A DNA stretch of 7,538 nucleotides from a virus. Taxonomy: Duplodnaviria > Heunggongvirae > Uroviricota > Caudoviricetes. The notes under the pieces were generated by a model that was not told where the DNA came from, did not search any database, and saw nothing but the letters and a program-made list of their open reading frames with translations. This document shows positions 1-7,538 of this stretch, piece by piece. Every line of letters begins with the position of its first letter. Position 1 is the stretch's first letter. The position numbers were made by a program, and so were the translations under genes. The stretch lies in the IMG/VR virus record IMGVR_UViG_2529292734_000008, positions 1 through 7,538 of that record. The stretch is one strand, 5' to 3'.

Positions 1-523
1 TTACCCGTTCTGTGCGGATCACTTTCAGGGCGCTGCTCACCAGTTCCAGTTGTTCTGCGCTGACTTCCCCCAGATAATCCAGCTCACCGCCACACTCCGG
101 GCAACAGCTTTCTTCAGGCTCCAGGCGGTATATCTCACGGGGGAGATGTGCCGGTAACGGACGACGATGGCGCGACTGTCGCAACTGGCGGGGAACCAGT
201 GGGTCATCCTCACGCCCACTGTAACGATCGCTTTCCTGCTCGCGTTGTTTCAGCAGGGCTTCAGCCTGTTCAACCTCACGACGCAGTTTTTCAGAACGGG
301 TTCCGAACAGCATCCGGCGCAGTTTTCTATCTGAGCCCGCAGATGCTCTATTTCTCGCTCATCTTCTTCGATCTTTTCTTCGGCACGTGCCAGTTGCAGA
401 GCGCAGGAAGGCCTCCGTCTCTTCAACCAGACTCAGTTGCTGGTCTTCCTGACGGAGGGCTTCAGCCTGCTCAGAGAGCAGCCTTTCCAGCTCAGCGATG
501 CGAATGAGGTATTTCTGACTCAT
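1..523 (-). CDS. tnpC: IS66-family transposase TnpC, N-terminal part (3' end outside window); reading frame appears interrupted
   Basis: ATG at 523-521 gives MSQKYLIRIAELERLLSEQAEALRQEDQQLSLVEETEAFLRSA. A coiled-coil segment LARAEEKIEEDEREIEHLRAQIE then lies in the +1 frame, and the long segment KLRRMLFGTRSEKLRREVEQAEALLKQ...CCPECGGELDYLGEVSAEQLELVSSALKVIRTERV returns to the ATG frame. Read straight from the ATG, the frame hits TGA (plus 359-361) after 54 codons. Confidence 0.75.
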
Positions 524-553
524 GGCCGTTTTTATAATCCGGCCCGGCGTTTT

Positions 554-904
554 TTACAACATTGTCAGTGCGTTAAGGCGGGATGTTTTTGGCTGACGCC
601 AGTCCAGCTTATCGAGGAGCATTGCCAGTTGCGAGCGGGTAATGGATATCTTACCGTCACGCACCGCAGGCCAGATAAACTGACCTTCCTCAAGGCGTTT
701 GGTGAACAGGCACAGACCATCAGCATCAGCCCACAGGATTTTAATCGTGTCTCCCCGTCGGCCACGGAAGATAAACAGGTGACCGGAGAAGGGGTTATCA
801 TCCAGCACATGCTGTATCTGCTCCCCCAGACCGTTGAAGGATTTACGCATATCAGTAACGCCGGCAACGAGCCAGATACGGGTACCTGATGGGAGTGAAA
901 TCAT
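554..904 (-). CDS. tnpB: IS66-family accessory protein TnpB (orf2)
   Basis: 116-aa ORF MISLPSGTRIWLVAGVTDMRKSFNGLGEQIQ...GHLFIFRGRRGDTIKILWADADGLCLFTKRLE, which matches the characteristic IS66 Orf2 sequence as I recall it. It sits between tnpA and tnpC. Confidence 0.85.
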   Translation of the reverse strand: MISLPSGTRIWLVAGVTDMRKSFNGLGEQIQHVLDDNPFSGHLFIFRGRRGDTIKILWADADGLCLFTKRLEEGQFIWPAVRDGKISITRSQLAMLLDKLDWRQPKTSRLNALTML

Positions 905-1338
905 CGTCCCTCCCGGTCAGCTCACGGATCAACACCGTGAGCAGCTCTGGTGAAGGATTTTCCAGCATCATTTTACCGTAATGGAATTCCACATGGCAGG
1001 AAGCTGCACAAGCAACTGATAATGCCTCCGGAGCAGGAGCATCTGTAGCACAGCGCGGGGGGTCGATAAGTTCCACTGGAACCAGAGTCGGAGAGGCCGG
1101 AAAAGATTGTGATACTGTAGGGCCTACAATAGTTGGAGGCATTCTACGAGAAAATACGTCCTTCTCTTTGCCAGAGGCGTAGCCATTTAAAAATCAGGTT
1201 GTTATCAACGCCATGTTCCCGGGCCAGTTGTGCAACATTGGCATTTGGTTTCGAAGCCAGTTCAACCATATGAAGTTTAAATTCATTAGAAAATATCCGG
1301 CGGGTTCCGGAGCGCCAGTCTGTAGGTTTATCCATCAA
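852..1338 (-). CDS. tnpA: IS66-family TnpA (orf1), present as two ORFs in different frames (1338-1144 and 1142-852); possibly frameshifted
   Basis: First ORF MMDKPTDWRSGTRRIFSNEFKLHMVELASKPNANVAQLAREHGVDNNLIFKWLRLWQREGRIFS (HTH-like) stops at TAG 1146-1144. Second ORF starts at ATG 1142 in another frame (MPPTIVGPTV...LLTVLIRELTGRDDDF...). The junction lies at the T4 run on the coding (minus) strand (A-run 1151-1154 on plus). Whether the native gene is continuous is from memory and unverified. Confidence 0.55.
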
Positions 1339-1449
1339 TAGAACTCCGTCTAATTTAGAAGGAGCTCTAATTTAGTCTGCAAGGAGCAGGTGTTACAGAC
1401 GGCATTGGCTTTACGCTTACGATTATTCATACTTCGTTTCTCCTCTTGA

Positions 1450-1839
1450 TCAGGCGGCTGCACCCGCCGTTTTCTCGTACTTACTGATAGTGATCTCGAC
1501 CTTCCCTTCCGGGATAACCGGTCCCCACTCCACCAGCATTCTTTTCACCTGACTGTCGTCTTCCCACACCCCCGCGTGGGTCAGGGCGTCAAACAGCGCC
1601 TTGTTATAGTTGTCCAGATCGCGGATCCTGTTATCCGGAGGAAACAACACGATCTCCACTGAAGCAGGTGCCGACGTTGGTTTCGGCAGACGACGTAACT
1701 GCTCAACTATTGCTGCGCACGCCGCGCTCTGGAATTTTCGCCCCGCCGCGCTTATCAGGCTCTTACCAGCAAACGCCCCTTTGTTGGGGTGTCGCCAGTA
1801 CGTGTTCACGCTGGGCGGAAAAGGCAGGATCAGCTTCAT
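1450..1839 (-). CDS. rusA: RusA-family Holliday junction resolvase (crossover junction endodeoxyribonuclease), lambdoid nin-region type
   Basis: 129-aa ORF with PPSVNTYWR...RIRDLDNYNKALFDALTHAGVWEDDSQV, resembling the RusA signature including the acidic RDLDN motif. Its ATG overlaps the stop of the upstream gene (ATGA). Confidence 0.85.
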   Translation of the reverse strand: MKLILPFPPSVNTYWRHPNKGAFAGKSLISAAGRKFQSAACAAIVEQLRRLPKPTSAPASVEIVLFPPDNRIRDLDNYNKALFDALTHAGVWEDDSQVKRMLVEWGPVIPEGKVEITISKYEKTAGAAA

Positions 1840-2162
1840 ACTTTCAGGCCCCTCTCATGTAACCAGTGGGTTGCACGCAGCCTTGCGTTTTCCTCACCGG
1901 CAAGCAGTGAGCGGATAATCCCGACCGCCTCGCTGTCGTCGTCCTTCACCGCGGTATGAAGCGTGATGCCCCGGGCCACGCCACGCTTTATCGTGATGAC
2001 GCCTTTTTTCTCCAGTGCGCGAAGATGCTCCACCGCTGCATTCACTGAACGGTATCCCAGCATGGTTGCCACCTCCTGATTGGTTGGCGGGAAGCCACGT
2101 TCTTTCTGATAAGAAATCAGCATATCCAGCACCTGCTGCTGGCATTGAGTTAACGTCGTCAT
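1836..2162 (-). CDS. LexA-like DNA-binding protein (LexA N-terminal winged-HTH domain only, no S24 peptidase domain)
   Basis: 108-aa ORF MTTLTQCQQQVLDMLISYQKERGFPPTNQEVATMLGYRSVNAAVEHLRALEKKGVITIKRGVARGITL aligns by eye with E. coli LexA residues 1-70 ([69 protein letters not shown]). The protein ends about 35 residues later with no Ser/Lys protease module. ATGA overlaps at both ends. Confidence 0.75.
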   Translation of the reverse strand: MTTLTQCQQQVLDMLISYQKERGFPPTNQEVATMLGYRSVNAAVEHLRALEKKGVITIKRGVARGITLHTAVKDDDSEAVGIIRSLLAGEENARLRATHWLHERGLKV

Positions 2163-2812
2163 GCCGCCATCTCCCTGACCAGTTTTTCTGCCTGCTGGCG
2201 AACCTGCGCCAGAAAGGCCTCACCACATGCCTCAAGTTCATCGCGCCCGATGTAGCTGATTGCCGGTCCCTTCCAGGTCTTGTCGAAAACAGCAATAGCA
2301 CCAGCGAAGAAAGCGCCTGTCGGCACCTGCTTCTCATCCTTCGGGATAAACCAGGCAGGCAGTTCAAAACCAATACGCCCGCGAATAAAAGCAATATGAT
2401 CTGCATCTTCCGGCCACCACACTTCGCTGGTGGCAGCTTTGATCAGGAAAACATAGCGCCCGCCTTTATCACGCATGGCACTGGCATGCTTCATGATGTA
2501 ACGCATGCCGGTGATGTATTGCCCCTCATGCTGGCTGGCGCGGCTGTATGGGGGATTACCAAAGGCAGCACCTTTAAGCTCCGCAAGGCGTTCTGACCAG
2601 TCATGCGCCAACGCGTTGTCTTCCGCCGTGTAATACGCAGCACATTTGGCGTTATCACCGTCAGTAAACAGATCCAGAACAAACGGGCCAAACAGAGTGT
2701 TAATTCCCCAGAAAATGTTGTCCGGCGTGCGCCACTGATCGCCCACTTCCTTCAGTTCATGGGCTGGTTTGTTCCGCAGTTCCGCCAGCGCCTGGCAATA
2801 TTTATTACTCAT
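2159..2812 (-). CDS. Phage N6-adenine DNA methyltransferase (Dam-like orphan MTase)
   Basis: ORF contains the motif-IV sequence FGNPPYS (NPPY) and an overall phage N-6-adenine MTase-like sequence. The likely start is ATG 2812-2810, overlapping the upstream stop as TAATG, with GGGGG just upstream. The ORF track extends to a GTG at 2845. Confidence 0.8.
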   Translation of the reverse strand: MSNKYCQALAELRNKPAHELKEVGDQWRTPDNIFWGINTLFGPFVLDLFTDGDNAKCAAYYTAEDNALAHDWSERLAELKGAAFGNPPYSRASQHEGQYITGMRYIMKHASAMRDKGGRYVFLIKAATSEVWWPEDADHIAFIRGRIGFELPAWFIPKDEKQVPTGAFFAGAIAVFDKTWKGPAISYIGRDELEACGEAFLAQVRQQAEKLVREMAA

Positions 2813-3306
2813 TAAGCCCCCACGTAATTCCCTGAGAGATACCACTCTTCACCTGATGCAGCCCGCTTACTGCTTTTCCGTAAACACAGTTCACGACGTG
2901 CCAGAAAATTGTTTCGTTCTGGCTGGGAGTGGCTTTCACGGAATGCCGCCATCCACACCGTTGCAGCACGACGGTATAAGCCCCTGGACTCCAGTTCTTC
3001 CGCCTGGCGGGTCAGGCACAAAATCACCCGCGGGTCGTTAGTGCCGACATAGAAATTGCGCACAGGTCTGGTTTCACGAACTGGTTGTGGTTCCGGATCC
3101 TGCGCTCTCTCAGTCAGGCGCGGGAAATGTCTGTGTGTATCTCCTTCACAACGGTGAGCCACACGCCCACTCTGACGTAACTTGCTTGCTGACTGCAGAA
3201 CGCGCTGCCGTGAGTAACCTGCAAAAGCATCCGCAATGTCTCCGGAAGTACAGCCCGGATGGGCTTCAATGAATTTCTGAACGTCATTCAAAAGACTCAT
3301 GCTCAC
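2812..3306 (-). CDS. Phage regulatory protein, winged-helix-like N-terminus with PerC-like C-terminal region (putative)
   Basis: 164-aa ORF translationally coupled at both ends (ATGA with the replication gene stop; TAATG with the MTase start). The C-terminal segment LESRGLYRRAATVWMAAF resembles the conserved core I recall for PerC/Pch-family activators; this assignment is from memory and is tentative. Confidence 0.55.
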   Translation of the reverse strand: MSMSLLNDVQKFIEAHPGCTSGDIADAFAGYSRQRVLQSASKLRQSGRVAHRCEGDTHRHFPRLTERAQDPEPQPVRETRPVRNFYVGTNDPRVILCLTRQAEELESRGLYRRAATVWMAAFRESHSQPERNNFLARRELCLRKSSKRAASGEEWYLSGNYVGA

Positions 3307-4244
3307 CCCCTGAATCCTGCCGGGATCTGGCTGTAGTCCACATTGTCGTAACTGGCTTTGAAGTACGGGTCTTCGCGTTTTTCTGTGTACGTGCTGACGG
3401 ACGGCGATAAGCGCAGGGAAAGCTCATCCCATTTTTCCCGCAGCTTCGACGGGCTGAGCACGTTACGGCACCAGAACGGATCGCGGCTGACGCGGCTGTA
3501 CATCTCGCAGATTTGTTTGTGAGTACGACCATCCTGCACACACATCAGGCGAATTTCGTTTGCCCAGGCTGTCCAGTTCGGTTCTTTGGGACGAACCACC
3601 TCGCCGTCACATTCGGCAGCCTGCTCGTACAGGGCGATGATTTTTTTCCAGAGCCACTGTGCGCAGGTCAAATCATCCTGCGTCCCCCACTGGCGCTTTT
3701 TAGGGCTGAATACAACCGCATCAGGATGGCGAGTTAAAAAATCCTGTTCAGCCGTCTGCGTGTCCGGTTGCGAAGCGTCCGGACGAGAAGGTTTTTTATC
3801 TGACGGATCATGTTTTGATTTTACTGACGGATCCCCGCCAGATTCTGACGGGTGAAAACCCGCTTTTTTGCCAGATTTCGACGCATCAAATTTTGACGGG
3901 TCAGATTTTGATGCGTCAGATTTTGACGGGTCAGAATCTGACAGTTGAGAAAATGCCGCTGCCTGAAGCTTCGCAACGTTAAGCTGATAAACATTCGACG
4001 CATTGCGGTTACCCTGGCGACGCGCCTTACGCGTTAACCAGCCTTCTGCTTCCAGCCGTGCGATAGCCGTTCTGACGGTACTCATCCCCGCGCCAATCTG
4101 ACGGGCAATGGTTTCAATTGATGGCCAGCACACACCTTCGTCATTACTGAAATCAGCCAGGCGGGCCATAATTGCCACGCTGGATAACTTCATGCCTGAT
4201 GCAGCGCAACCATCCCATACATAGCCGGTTAATTTAGTGCTCAT
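3303..4244 (-). CDS. Phage replication initiation protein (lambda O-like function): N-terminal HTH DNA-binding domain, low-complexity linker, C-terminal domain
   Basis: 313-aa ORF. The N-terminus ([70 protein letters not shown]) is typical of phage replication-initiator HTH domains. The central linker SDSDPSKSDASKSDPSKFDASKS is encoded by tandem DNA repeats. SD GAGGT lies 5 nt upstream of the ATG. Confidence 0.8.
   Translation of the reverse strand: MSTKLTGYVWDGCAASGMKLSSVAIMARLADFSNDEGVCWPSIETIARQIGAGMSTVRTAIARLEAEGWLTRKARRQGNRNASNVYQLNVAKLQAAAFSQLSDSDPSKSDASKSDPSKFDASKSGKKAGFHPSESGGDPSVKSKHDPSDKKPSRPDASQPDTQTAEQDFLTRHPDAVVFSPKKRQWGTQDDLTCAQWLWKKIIALYEQAAECDGEVVRPKEPNWTAWANEIRLMCVQDGRTHKQICEMYSRVSRDPFWCRNVLSPSKLREKWDELSLRLSPSVSTYTEKREDPYFKASYDNVDYSQIPAGFRG
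3798..3950. repeat. Putative replication origin: about 8 iterons with 10-bp core TGAYGSRTCA inside the replication-initiator gene
   Basis: Core copies at about 3801, 3825, 3846, 3880, 3895, 3910, 3925 and 3940, the last four at exact 15-bp spacing (GATTT-TGACGGGTCA). Flanking T-rich tracts at 3791-3797 and 3864-3869. The position matches the lambda arrangement where ori lies within the O gene linker. Confidence 0.6.
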
Positions 4245-4592
4245 GACCGACCTCTATTTCCCTGAATTTACGACGAAACTGTTCGAGCGGACTGAAGCAT
4301 TCATGCTCATAACCTTCGCGGAGGTAGATAACCCGTTGTGTTTCCGGCTCCCAACGAATGACTCTGACGGGCACTCCGTAGTGATCTTTGAACCAGCGGT
4401 TAACTTGTCGCAAAGGACTGTCTCCTTCTGCCGGTTGAAATCACCCACAGCCCACTCTGCAAAGCTGTGGGTTACAATTTCCCTGTCACCTGGTACATTC
4501 ACTGCATAGCAATATTCCACCTTCGCTTTTCCACCCGGAACAGGAAGCGCAATCAGTTGCGAGCGACGGTAGTGTGTTGTTAAACTGTTCAT
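4234..4592 (-). CDS. Hypothetical phage protein, apparently frameshifted (N-terminal part in one frame, protein-like C-terminal part in another)
   Basis: The track ORF 4592-4254 starts [51 protein letters not shown] and then degenerates into a Ser/Thr-rich tail. From 4440 down to TAA 4236-4234 a second frame encodes [68 protein letters not shown]. The start overlaps the upstream gene stop as ATGA. Confidence 0.5.
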
Positions 4593-4957
4593 GCGTTAGT
4601 TTCTCCACAGTCACGACACGCCACGGCGCCCGGAGCTGCACACTCGCGGGCGTCATTACTTTCTGAAATGCAAAAAATTTTGTAGACCAGTGCTGCATGC
4701 TCCTGCAGCTTCGAAATTGAGAGGTAGAGCTCGTCATTAATTGCTGTCTTCTCATGCGGTTCCACTACACCGTCTTCGATTGCTGAACGAATCTGTTTTG
4801 AATAACTGCCGATCTGTTCAATGACTTCCAGCAGACGCTGGTTAATATCGGCGTTGTCCACATCCTCGACGTCAGGAAGAGACACAAAGACGCCATTTGC
4901 AGACTGCGCCACAGCATCAGCAATGAAGTGAGTTCCACCAGCACGTTGCAAAATCAT
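4589..4957 (-). CDS. Hypothetical phage early protein (122 aa, predicted helical)
   Basis: ORF with ATG at 4957. Its stop overlaps the downstream gene start (ATGA at 4592-4589). It lies between the cII-like and replication genes in the same operon. No family recognised. Confidence 0.55.
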
Positions 4958-4978
4958 TGCCCATCCCAGCGGGAAAAT

Positions 4979-5185
4979 CTAATCGCCATCGGCACGAAGG
5001 CGGTTAAATAATGCGTTCTCTGTTACATCCAGCCAGTCAGCAGCTTCAGCGTAACCCCCCGGCAACGCTGCGATAGTTTTTCTGACAGCTTTCACGTACC
5101 ACTCAGGCTGTTTGTCTACTTTCCAGTGATGCTTACCCACGGTTAGCCTCATCGTTCTGTGGTTTCTGTTAATCGATTTATCCAT
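4979..5185 (-). CDS. CII-like / YdaT-like HTH regulatory protein (putative), ending at an amber codon
   Basis: HTH-like segment GYAEAADWLDVTENALFNRLR at the C-terminus, in the position of lambda cII (immediately downstream of cro). The start is uncertain: ATG 5185 overlaps the cro stop, with alternatives at 5197 and 5152; none has a strong SD. The ORF ends at TAG 4981-4979. Confidence 0.45.
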   Translation of the reverse strand: MDKSINRNHRTMRLTVGKHHWKVDKQPEWYVKAVRKTIAALPGGYAEAADWLDVTENALFNRLRADGD

Positions 5186-5378
5186 TAGATTTTTCATAAA
5201 GCTCAGGTTTAAATGGCAACCGTCCGCAAGTTCTATATGCAGCTTCTGCTGCACGTCCTTTTGGAATTAACTGGCCCGGACGGTTTCGCCACTGATAAAC
5301 GGCTTCAGTTGTTATGCCGAAAAAAGCAGCAACTTTCTCAATACTGCCGAAGTAGCTTTCGATATCGTCAGTTGTCAT
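5178..5378 (-). CDS. Cro-like transcriptional regulator (small HTH protein)
   Basis: 66-aa ORF MTTDDIESYFGSIEKVAAFFGITTEAVYQWRNRPGQLIPKGRAAEAAYRTCGRLPF with an HTH motif (VAAFFGITTEAVYQWR). SD GGAGGG lies just upstream of ATG 5378. It is transcribed divergently from the repressor gene. Confidence 0.7.
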   Translation of the reverse strand: MTTDDIESYFGSIEKVAAFFGITTEAVYQWRNRPGQLIPKGRAAEAAYRTCGRLPFKPELYEKSNG

Positions 5379-5388
5379 ACGCCCTCCA

Positions 5389-5455
5389 AACTAAGTTTTA
5401 TTAGATGCTAATTACAAATCTATCTTTGGTCAATAAAAACTAAGATTACTTAGTA
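5389..5455. promoter_or_regulatory. Divergent immunity control region (OR-like): two 14-bp inverted-repeat operator candidates and a PR-like promoter for cro
   Basis: CTAAGTTTTATTAG (5391-5404) and CTAAGATTACTTAG (5440-5453; perfect 5-bp arms CTAAG/CTTAG). On the minus strand, -35 TTGACC (5433-5428), a 17-bp spacer and -10 TAGCAT (5410-5405) precede the cro ATG. The first operator overlaps the -10/+1 region. Confidence 0.55.
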
Positions 5456-5475
5456 ATTAAAGAAATGGTGCTCCT

Positions 5476-5985
5476 ATGGAAACGGTTGGTCAGCGTATAA
5501 AAGCTCTGAGAAGAGTTACCAGAACGTCCCAGAAAGAATTGGGTAAATTTTGTGGAGTAAGCGACGTTGCTGTGGGGTACTGGGAGAAAGACATCAATAC
5601 CCCTGGTGGGGAGGCACTTTCGAAATTAGCGAAGTTCTTCAATACGTCAATAGATTACATTCTTTATGGTGCTGAGTTTGAAGGCAAACTCGTCACAAAC
5701 ATGCGCAGAGTTCCTGTAATATCGTGGGTTCAGGCTGGGCAGTTTACTGAGTGCAGGGCAGCAGAAGTGTTTAGTGAAGTGGACAAGTGGGTAGATACAT
5801 CATTAAAGATTGGTGATAACTCATTTGCATTAGAGGTTAAAGGTGACTCCATGACTAACCCTAATGGCCTCCCAACAATACCAGAAGGCGCAACAGTGAT
5901 TGTAGATCCAGATGCAGAACCTCGTCATGGAAAAATAGTCATCGCTCGACTTGATGGAACAAACGAAGCTACAGTAAAAAATTAG
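5476..5985 (+). CDS. CI-type prophage repressor (XRE HTH + LexA-like S24 peptidase domain), truncated by a frameshift; remaining C-terminal codons continue in another frame to 6101
   Basis: N-terminal HTH (QKELGKFCGVSDVAVGYWEKD) and S24 catalytic Ser motif GDSM. The ORF ends ...ARLDGTNEATVKN*. The adjacent frame encodes KKLVIDGPQKFLVPLNPRYPNIPINGNCLIIGVVKGVQYEL* (to TAA 6099-6101), which matches the lambda CI C-terminus pattern [35 protein letters not shown]. The break is in the A6 run 5976-5981. Confidence 0.85.
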   Translation: METVGQRIKALRRVTRTSQKELGKFCGVSDVAVGYWEKDINTPGGEALSKLAKFFNTSIDYILYGAEFEGKLVTNMRRVPVISWVQAGQFTECRAAEVFSEVDKWVDTSLKIGDNSFALEVKGDSMTNPNGLPTIPEGATVIVDPDAEPRHGKIVIARLDGTNEATVKN

Positions 5986-6115
5986 TCATCGATGGCCCTC
6001 AAAAGTTTTTAGTGCCATTAAATCCTCGGTATCCCAACATCCCTATCAATGGTAATTGCCTTATCATTGGTGTAGTCAAAGGAGTTCAATACGAACTCTA
6101 AGACCTCTCTTCTCT

Positions 6116-6183
6116 AACTAAGGCACCGAACTAAGAAAAGTTTGGTGTTTTCTCTTGCCATAATAACTAAGTTAAGTTAGATT
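6116..6183 (+). promoter_or_regulatory. OL/PL-like element: repeated AACTAAG half-sites, a 14-bp operator-like site and a sigma70-like promoter pointing rightward
   Basis: AACTAAG at 6116-6122, 6129-6135 and 6165-6171. CTAAGTTAAGTTAG at 6167-6180 matches the OR motif. -35 TTGCCA (6155-6160), 17-bp spacer, -10 TAGATT (6178-6183). Confidence 0.45.
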
Positions 6184-6261
6184 TTATGTCAAAGATAACG
6201 AACAGGCAGGACGCCCACGAAGTAGCCGCCTGGGGCATATGAAGTCCAGGATGATTCGTTA

Positions 6262-6290
6262 GCAACAAAAAAGCGCCCTACAGGACGCTT
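6262..6290 (-). terminator. Intrinsic terminator-like hairpin with U-tract, minus-strand sense
   Basis: Minus-strand RNA would read AAGCGUCC-UGUA-GGGCGCUU followed by UUUUUUGUUG (stem 6271-6290, A-run 6267-6272 on plus). On the plus strand the same hairpin has a C-A mismatch and no downstream U-tract. Confidence 0.5.
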
Positions 6291-6291
6291 A

Positions 6292-6303
6292 GCTCTTTAA
6301 CAA
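6292..6303 (+). promoter_or_regulatory. boxA-like antitermination element (12/12 match to the rrn-type boxA core GCTCTTTAACAA)
   Basis: GCTCTTTAACAA at 6292-6303, immediately after a hairpin and about 45 nt upstream of the ATG of the first plus-strand gene downstream of the PL-like promoter. A weak AU-rich hairpin CAAGTAACTGATAACTTG follows at 6319-6336. Confidence 0.45.
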
Positions 6304-6348
6304 TCTGGTCCCCATCAACAAGTAACTGATAACTTGAGGAGATGTGAA

Positions 6349-6555
6349 ATGCACAAAACAGAACCCAAAATCGTCGCGCCTGGCTACACAGATGAGGAAA
6401 TTTATGAGTGGATGACAAAGAAGCTGGCAGCTATAAACCAGCTTCGTGAAGTGCTGTCTTATCGACAGGAAACAATAGACTCCTTAAAAAAACTGGATCA
6501 GGAAATCACGGTTTTATCACAGGATGTTACTTTAGATATTGTGCAGACAAATTAG
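6349..6555 (+). CDS. Hypothetical small protein (68 aa), first gene of the rightward PL-like transcript; AT-rich accessory gene
   Basis: ATG at 6349 preceded by a strong SD GAGGAG (6336-6341). The track ORF begins at an earlier in-frame ATG at 6334. The translation MHKTEPKIVAPGYTDEEIYEWMTKKLAAINQLREVLSYRQETIDSLKKLDQEITVLSQDVTLDIVQTN is predicted helical and acidic. No family recognised. Confidence 0.6.
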   Translation: MHKTEPKIVAPGYTDEEIYEWMTKKLAAINQLREVLSYRQETIDSLKKLDQEITVLSQDVTLDIVQTN

Positions 6556-6961
6556 GATCCCATTCATTTTCGTCAAAATCATCAAAGTGATGAATTTGTG
6601 ATCTCCAGTCTCGATAATCTAAAAATTTCTGGGCGGTTACGCTTATTTTATCAAGTGTGAGTTCATCCTGAATTGAAAGAAGAAGTTCATCAAATTTCAT
6701 CTCATTAATCTGTTTTGGCATCCAGTGATGCTTCATCAGAATAAGGTGAACCAGAGCCTTTTTCCCATTCAACTGATTATAGGGAGTGCCGAATTTCTTC
6801 CGGTGCTCATGTAAGACAAGGTCCAAAAGAGTAAGTAATGTTGCCCTTGATTCAACTTTGCTTATTTCGACTGATGACACTACCCCACTGATTTCAATGC
6901 CCCGATACTTTCCAACATTTTCACAGTGGGATTTGTACAGCGTATAGATATTACCGGACAT
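6527..6961 (-). CDS. Hypothetical protein (144 aa), moron-like accessory gene transcribed convergently to the PL-like operon
   Basis: ORF with SD AAGGA (revcomp of plus 6962-6975) upstream of ATG 6961. The region looks AT-rich compared with the flanking phage backbone. Its 3' end overlaps the 68-aa gene by 29 bp. No family recognised. Confidence 0.7.
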   Translation of the reverse strand: MSGNIYTLYKSHCENVGKYRGIEISGVVSSVEISKVESRATLLTLLDLVLHEHRKKFGTPYNQLNGKKALVHLILMKHHWMPKQINEMKFDELLLSIQDELTLDKISVTAQKFLDYRDWRSQIHHFDDFDENEWDPNLSAQYLK

Positions 6962-6976
6962 TTCTTTTCCTTTTGC

Positions 6977-7028
6977 GTTGTTGGGGATAACCAGATTAAC
7001 CGAATCCTTGTTGTTGGGGAATAACCAG
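6977..7028. repeat. Two 18-19 bp direct repeats GTTGTTGGGGA(A)TAACCAG separated by about 15 bp, in the upstream region of the 144-aa gene
   Basis: Copy 1 at 6977-6994 and copy 2 at 7010-7028, nearly identical, located 16-67 bp upstream of the minus-strand ATG at 6961. Confidence 0.5.
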
Positions 7029-7245
7029 GTCCACCTCGCCTGATGTGGCTAAAAGCAGGCACATAACAGCTAAGTATTTTCAACCAGAGAGAATCCTTAG
7101 CGTTGTGGTGAATGCGGCTCAGCGCACGCGGGTTAAGGTTGAGGCTGACAGTCGACCTTCTGTGGATACCCACCCGCCTGGTGTGCAACCTTCGCCAGGC
7201 ACCGGGAGGCACCCGGCACCACAACTTTATGCTGTGTGTAGTCTT

Positions 7246-7292
7246 GGCGGTACCAGCTTGTACCCTTGCTTCCGGCTGGTACCGTCCTTTTT
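7246..7292 (+). terminator. Rho-independent terminator-like hairpin (10-bp perfect stem CGGTACCAGC/GCTGGTACCG, 17-nt loop, T5 tract)
   Basis: Stem 7248-7257 pairs with 7275-7284, followed by TTTTT at 7288-7292 on the plus strand. Confidence 0.6.
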
Positions 7293-7297
7293 ACAAA

Positions 7298-7379
7298 ACA
7301 GAGAAGAGCATCACCGGACGACGGGCTCATAACCCAATCCATCCGGGCGGCAGTCACCGCAGGTGTTCTTCTCTGTTTT
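7298..7379 (+). other. Long-range helix (about 15 bp including G-U pairs) enclosing about 49 nt, followed by a UUU run; structured leader element
   Basis: 7298-7312 pairs with 7362-7376 (ACAGAGAAGAGCATC / GGTGTTCTTCTCTGT). It lies about 50 nt upstream of the next gene's ATG. Confidence 0.35.
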
Positions 7380-7429
7380 GTGGAGAAACTAACCGACCTT
7401 GCAGGGTCGATATGATGAGGAGCAGCAAA

Positions 7430-7538
7430 ATGGCTAGCGAACGCAGTACTGATGTGCAGGCATTTATCGGGGAGCTGGACGGCGGCGTATTTGAAACCAA
7501 AATCGGCGCAGTTCTCAGTGAAGTCGCTTCCGGTGTGA
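7430..7538 (+). CDS. Hypothetical protein, 5' partial view (continues beyond window end)
   Basis: ATG 7430 with SD GAGGAG (7417-7422) 8 nt upstream. Translation MASERSTDVQAFIGELDGGVFETKIGAVLSEVASGV... is open to the window end. No family recognised. Confidence 0.55.
   Translation, partial: MASERSTDVQAFIGELDGGVFETKIGAVLSEVASGV

Follow-up and report, generated by a model that had tools for sequence, protein, structure and literature searches.

A reading-frame switch in the tnpC gene of a prophage-borne ISEc47 copy, probably a base-calling artefact at a draft contig end

The closest described relative of the locus analyzed here is ISEc47, an insertion sequence (IS) of the IS66 family. As reference we used the copy at NZ_CP025916.1 414505-417045 (L001), an element of 2,541 bp that has GTAAGCGT termini and an 8-bp target duplication (CGTAATAT) and encodes a 537-aa transposase (TnpC, WP_001744949.1). 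Transposase genes that change frame part-way are known from the IS1 and IS3 families, in which two open reading frames (ORFs) are fused by programmed -1 frameshifting, a single, conserved shift on a slippery A-rich heptamer. Genes can also appear split through the homopolymer errors of flow-based and long-read sequencing, which change run lengths by one base.

The stretch of DNA that we analyzed (the window, 7,538 bp) resembles each of these in part. It shares with ISEc47 the order tnpA-tnpB-tnpC, the same terminus, and an identical TnpB, but differs from it by four one-base homopolymer indels and two transitions. As in the IS1 and IS3 families, the frame of its transposase gene changes part-way; unlike in those families, there are two opposite shifts, which are conserved in no other copy, lack a slippery motif, and have a stop codon between them. 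With homopolymer errors it has in common the ±1 changes in run length, their location in a region where the weakest coverage is expected, and the split genes; it differs in that it also contains three transitions, which are not typical of such errors, and in that errors are here deduced from assembled sequence instead of from reads. A copy on contig AIGT01000006.1 sits in the same prophage at the same insertion point, without the eight differences that are private to the window. Whether the differences are errors or real, the element is nothing novel but an ordinary, prophage-borne copy of ISEc47.

An ISEc47 copy at the end of a prophage contig

The window is the entire contig AIHL01000003.1, reverse-complemented, of the draft assembly GCA_000250435.2. 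It is a small contig of a 2012 draft. The DEC genome project reportedly combined 454 and Illumina sequencing. The AIHL project corresponds to Escherichia coli DEC14B, a strain name that we take from a paper using another of its contigs (PMC11914072). The features discussed below are listed in Table 1.

Table 1. Features of the 7,538-bp window
Feature	Position	Strand	Basis or remark
Left 1,420 bp of ISEc47-like IS66-family element	1..1420	-	99.6% identity to annotated ISEc47 copies
tnpC residues 68-174 (LZ_Tnp_IS66, zf-IS66 regions), ATG frame	2..322	-	
Second tnpC indel, A5->A4 (plus-strand T-run), restores ATG frame	323..326	-	
23 shifted codons, residues 44-66, LARAEEKIEEDEREIEHLRAQIE	325..393	-	readable only in +1 frame
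TGA ending the ATG frame (54-aa product)	359..361	-	
First tnpC indel, extra A, A1->A2 on gene strand (plus-strand TT), frame +1	394..395	-	
tnpC codons 1-43, ATG frame	395..523	-	three-frame translation and DNA alignment
tnpB (IS66 orf2), intact, 116 aa	554..904	-	100% identical to reference TnpB
tnpA (orf1, HTH_Tnp_1), broken	909..1335	-	N-terminal fragment ends after 63 aa
Outer end of left inverted repeat, GTAAGCGT...	1413..1420	-	adjoins phage DNA
Lambdoid (SfII/SfIV-like) prophage, early/regulatory region, host of the IS insertion	1421..7538	.	
cI/LexA-like repressor gene	5476-5985	+	A7->A6 at 5976-5981

The contig carries only the left 56% of ISEc47 and breaks off in tnpC at residue 174, a point that falls within an A7 run of the reference (...ACGGGTAAAAAAAGCC...). 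Next to the left end of the IS, at 1421-1428, is the phage target GATTATTC; because the right end is off the contig, the target duplication of this copy is not visible. The three genes of the IS66 set, tnpA (helix-turn-helix, HTH), tnpB (IS66 orf2), and tnpC, follow one another with an order and spacing identical to those of annotated ISEc47. Profile searches matched TnpB_IS66 (E = 3.1e-36), LZ_Tnp_IS66 and zf-IS66 on the repaired N-terminus of TnpC, and HTH_Tnp_1 on the tnpA fragment as well as on its intact orthologue. The DDE_Tnp_IS66 domain occupies residues 196-486 (E = 2.8e-97) of the reference TnpC, from a 99.9%-identical element, and would in the window lie beyond the contig end. Once the four indels are repaired, the IS of the window and ISEc47 are 99.9% identical over 1,420 bp. 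E. coli genomes contain a median of 2 and a maximum of 46 places that match the IS of the window.

The prophage part carries rusA, a lexA-like gene, dam, perC, a replication gene, ymfL, cro, a cI-like repressor gene, and yfdP. Strain D6 (L002) has this site without an interruption, and comparison with it places the insertion behind codon 3 of kilA-N in the prophage, directly downstream of rusA. An identical junction between IS and phage occurs in AIGT01000006.1 (L016), and no IS is found in AIHM01000024.1, which is otherwise identical; the insertion is therefore very recent within the clone. In addition, ymfL (minus strand, 4589-5140) contains a nonsense codon at 4979-4981, a C->T change on the gene strand relative to strain D6, that splits the gene into pieces of 53 and 122 aa. 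Two sister drafts and two Logan assemblies share this nonsense codon, which is thus a real marker of the lineage. In the repressor gene, the shortened A7 tract cuts the S24-peptidase protein from 208 to 169 aa, a change that is private relative to the sister strains. Another 11 contigs, some of them from short-read (Logan) assemblies, encode the identical 169-aa product, and this A7 tract may vary recurrently in nature.

Paired frameshifts in tnpC and tnpA

Three-frame translation of the minus strand from the ATG at 523 gives MSQKYLIRIAELERLLSEQAEALRQEDQQLSLVEETEAFLRSA in frame 0, followed by junk (TGTCRRKDRRR*) up to the TGA, so that the ORF (359..523) ends after 54 aa. The segment LARAEEKIEEDEREIEHLRAQIE can be read only in the +1 frame, and from KLRRMLFGTRSEKL... 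onward the protein is again in frame 0, to the end of the window. This agrees with the original prediction, made from the DNA alone, of about 43 codons in the ATG frame followed by a segment readable only in +1. The same prediction had two single-base changes taking the frame out and back within about 70 nt, a return at the T-run 323-326, and a stop at 359-361. Alignment with the intact NZ_CP025916.1 copy supports the whole of this description: one change is +1 (CTGC-ACTGG -> CTGCAACTGG), the other is -1 (ATAGAAAAACTG -> ATAGAAAACTG, one A lost), and they are spaced 68-69 nt apart, while the predicted stop is found in both the ORF listing and the translation. The assignment of the gene to IS66-family tnpC is likewise borne out by the match to ISEc47. 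The ATG frame resumes at CTG 322-320 (L68), and residue numbering is kept. The 23 codons in the shifted frame encode residues 44-66 of the intact protein with 100% identity, and the flanks are identical except for K26E. Such an exact match means that the frame switch is not a product of chance. Since the TGA lies within the shifted stretch, a full-length TnpC is impossible from the sequence as written.

A BLASTX alignment in one continuous frame had been named beforehand as an outcome that would speak against the switch, and on this point the two kinds of comparison diverge. Run as tblastn, the check returns a single one-frame high-scoring pair covering residues 1-174 at 87.6% identity, whereas alignment at the DNA level confirms the switch. 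As a refutation the single-frame match is misleading, because the alignment just bridges 23 wrong codons. Only the DNA alignment, and not a translated search, exposes the change of frame in tnpC.

Comparing the whole IS part of the window with the reference revealed a further +1/-1 pair in tnpA that had not been predicted. It consists of T3->T4 (plus-strand A-run 1151-1154) and G4->G3 (plus-strand C-run 908-910), 243 nt apart, and in tblastn residues 1-61 fall in frame -3 and residues 62-142 in frame -1. An intact TnpA of 144 aa is encoded both in the ISEc47 reference and in AIGT01000006.1. The ATGA in which the tnpA stop overlaps the tnpB start is present at 904, and the G4->G3 change leaves the body of tnpA out of phase with that TGA. 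We found the 63-aa tnpA fragment (the T4 state) once more, on an ENA metagenome contig (L014), in an IS66 relative that has diverged and whose own tnpC is likewise split, into two pieces. The 'compensating' nature of the indels in tnpC and tnpA does not mean functional rescue.

Differences private to the contig

In 5,426 complete E. coli genomes, which together contain 8,014 matching places, we searched for independent copies of the two tnpC indels and found neither. The best identity there was 98.6% over the 141-nt query, which corresponds to exactly the two indels. Exact scans for each indel gave 0 matches in viral contigs, in a set with one genome per species, and in metagenome contigs. Moreover, the frameshift products of 54 and 38 aa occurred on no contig besides AIHL01000003.1 among 153 billion recorded gene positions. 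The repaired IS reaches at best 99.9%, not 100%, in complete E. coli genomes, so the two transitions in the IS are also private.

Using the N-terminal fragment of ymfL that results from the nonsense codon as a lineage marker, we reached sister assemblies of the contig. The 48.8-kb contig AIGT01000006.1 (GCA_000250075.2) shares with the window the prophage, the IS, and the junction between them, and the whole window aligns to it at 99.89%. In AIHM01000024.1 (L015, 120.9 kb) and in an assembly of short reads (L017), the prophage is present and the IS is missing. In AIGT01000006.1 the IS part is identical to the ISEc47 reference, with an unbroken TnpC N-terminus and an intact TnpA, and the contig ends 18 nt further into tnpC than the window. 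The two contigs thus break off no more than 18 nt apart, at the A7 run of tnpC or slightly beyond it. This hints that they share an assembly breakpoint, such as a place where the IS66 copies in these genomes diverge or another element interrupts.

In a multiple alignment, the window and AIGT01000006.1 differed at only 8 places, comprising five ±1 homopolymer indels (A1->A2, A5->A4, T3->T4, G4->G3, and A7->A6, all of them changes in run length) and three A:T->G:C transitions (134, 448, and 2534). The window was the odd one out every time: at 2 of 2 differences in the phage part when compared with AIGT01000006.1, AIHM01000024.1, L017, and strain D6, and at 6 of 6 in the IS when compared with AIGT01000006.1, the ISEc47 reference, and ISEc43. 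Over 13.7 kb, AIHM01000024.1 and AIGT01000006.1 are separated by a single indel and no substitutions, and against this background the roughly 1 private difference per kb of the window is far out of line. Six of the eight private differences fall in the 1,420-bp IS end, which makes up 18.8% of the window (binomial p ~ 9e-4), and the remaining two in the prophage DNA beside it (6.1 kb), amounting to a concentration of about 13-fold in the IS. The private substitution in dam is synonymous. The transition at 448 (AAA->GAA, K26E) can also be read as the gain of a G and the loss of an A at a run boundary. We also considered the +,-,+,- order of the four IS indels, and it is not significant, a net-zero outcome having a chance of 6/16.

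Origin of the frame switch

We consider it probable, at roughly 80%, that the out-and-back switch in tnpC is a base-calling artefact in the consensus. This reading is favored because the changes are private, do not occur in the orthologous copy of the sister assembly, and are clustered homopolymer differences at a contig end that lies in a repeat. Consensus support is weakest where a repeat meets a contig end. We propose that homopolymer miscalls entered the consensus at the thinly supported, repeat-derived end of this small draft contig, in the form of A1->A2 and A5->A4 in tnpC and T3->T4 and G4->G3 in tnpA, which would break two of the three IS genes if taken literally. The true element would then be an ordinary intact ISEc47 with tnpA, tnpB, and tnpC at codon 4 of kilA-N, as in the sister assembly. 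The IS part contains 4 indels versus 2 substitutions, and the natural mutation spectrum is the reverse of such a ratio. From comparison of the sequences we infer an error of sequencing or assembly, and not mutation, as the cause. The original prediction had called the transposase non-functional unless the changes were sequence errors; the TGA does block a full-length protein, and the error branch of that statement appears to be the likelier one. Several observations argue against an artefact. The prophage has real lesions, such as the ymfL nonsense codon that independent assemblies have in common, and the 169-aa repressor allele on 11 other contigs indicates that indels of the A7->A6 type are natural too. 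A:T->G:C transitions together with homopolymer indels also form the spectrum of mismatch-repair deficiency, and the T3->T4 change of tnpA is present in one unrelated metagenome contig (L014).

Alternatively, the indels may be real, in which case the ISEc47 copy of DEC14B would have been privately pseudogenized by four slippage-type frameshifts and two substitutions. Such a copy would encode TnpB alone and would be mobile only with TnpA and TnpC supplied in trans by other copies. This is how the deposited sequence reads, decay is known in this prophage (the shared ymfL nonsense codon and the recurrent repressor frameshift), and the private changes resemble the spectrum of mismatch-repair-deficient cells, which in E. 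coli mutation-accumulation studies consists of A:T->G:C transitions and ±1 homopolymer changes. We nevertheless regard pseudogenization as unlikely. It requires the DEC14B branch alone to have acquired 8 changes within 7.5 kb, with none in the sister that has the same insertion, and the density of the changes is not even but about 13-fold higher in the IS. Nor could the second tnpC indel have been selected as a suppressor, because a stop is already present within the shifted stretch. A repair-deficient mutator is expected to hit long runs first. The IS indels are at runs of 1, 3, 4, and 5 bases, and both 6-base runs of the IS are unchanged, as are 12 of the 13 runs of at least 6 bases in the window, the thirteenth being the A7 shortened to A6. 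Given the clustering in the IS, this distribution of run lengths, and the lack of any change in the sister strain, we judged a mismatch-repair mutator unlikely. It is highly improbable that real changes record mutation aimed at the repeated element, by repeat-targeted inactivation or by a burst of mismatch-repair-deficient slippage, with tnpA and tnpC silenced and tnpB spared.

A consensus blended from diverged IS66-family copies (a collapsed repeat with misaligned paralogous reads) would be a special case of the artefact. The number of matching places per E. coli genome (median 2, up to 46) and the end of the contig inside the repeat are consistent with it. However, the six states of the window are not those of ISEc43 or of the diverged L014 element, except for T4, and none of the many sites that distinguish ISEc43 or L014 from ISEc47 is seen in the window, so that we give this very little weight. 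Least probable of all, to the point of being excluded, is programmed recoding, in which full-length TnpC would result from a ribosomal shift of +1 near GCA-A and a second one of -1 on the A-run. The frame does leave and return, and the second site is an A-run; yet the sister copy, the ISEc47 reference, ISEc43, and the 8,014 other matching places are all single-frame, no X-XXY-YYZ heptamer exists in the incoming frame at TCTGCAACTGG or ATAGAAAACTG, and a stop lies between the two shift sites. To our knowledge, no member of the IS66 family uses frameshifting in tnpC. Transcriptional slippage was rejected, as A4 is too short.

If, as we favor, the changes are consensus errors, what the prophage carries is a normal ISEc47 insertion, and the lesson is one for annotation only. 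If they are real, it is one more dead IS copy, which is commonplace. Ends of draft contigs that lie in IS elements can show paired frameshifts that mimic pseudogenes and even pass BLASTX as a single frame. AIHL01000003.1 is unreliable at its five homopolymer sites, and the calls of tnpA, tnpC, and the cI-like repressor are affected. Among other assemblies with this prophage, six near-identical chromosome assemblies (L004-L009, GCA_0532916xx) have Dam, PerC, KilA-N, and DAO each split in some of them, and these differing splits suggest abundant indel errors in those long-read assemblies.
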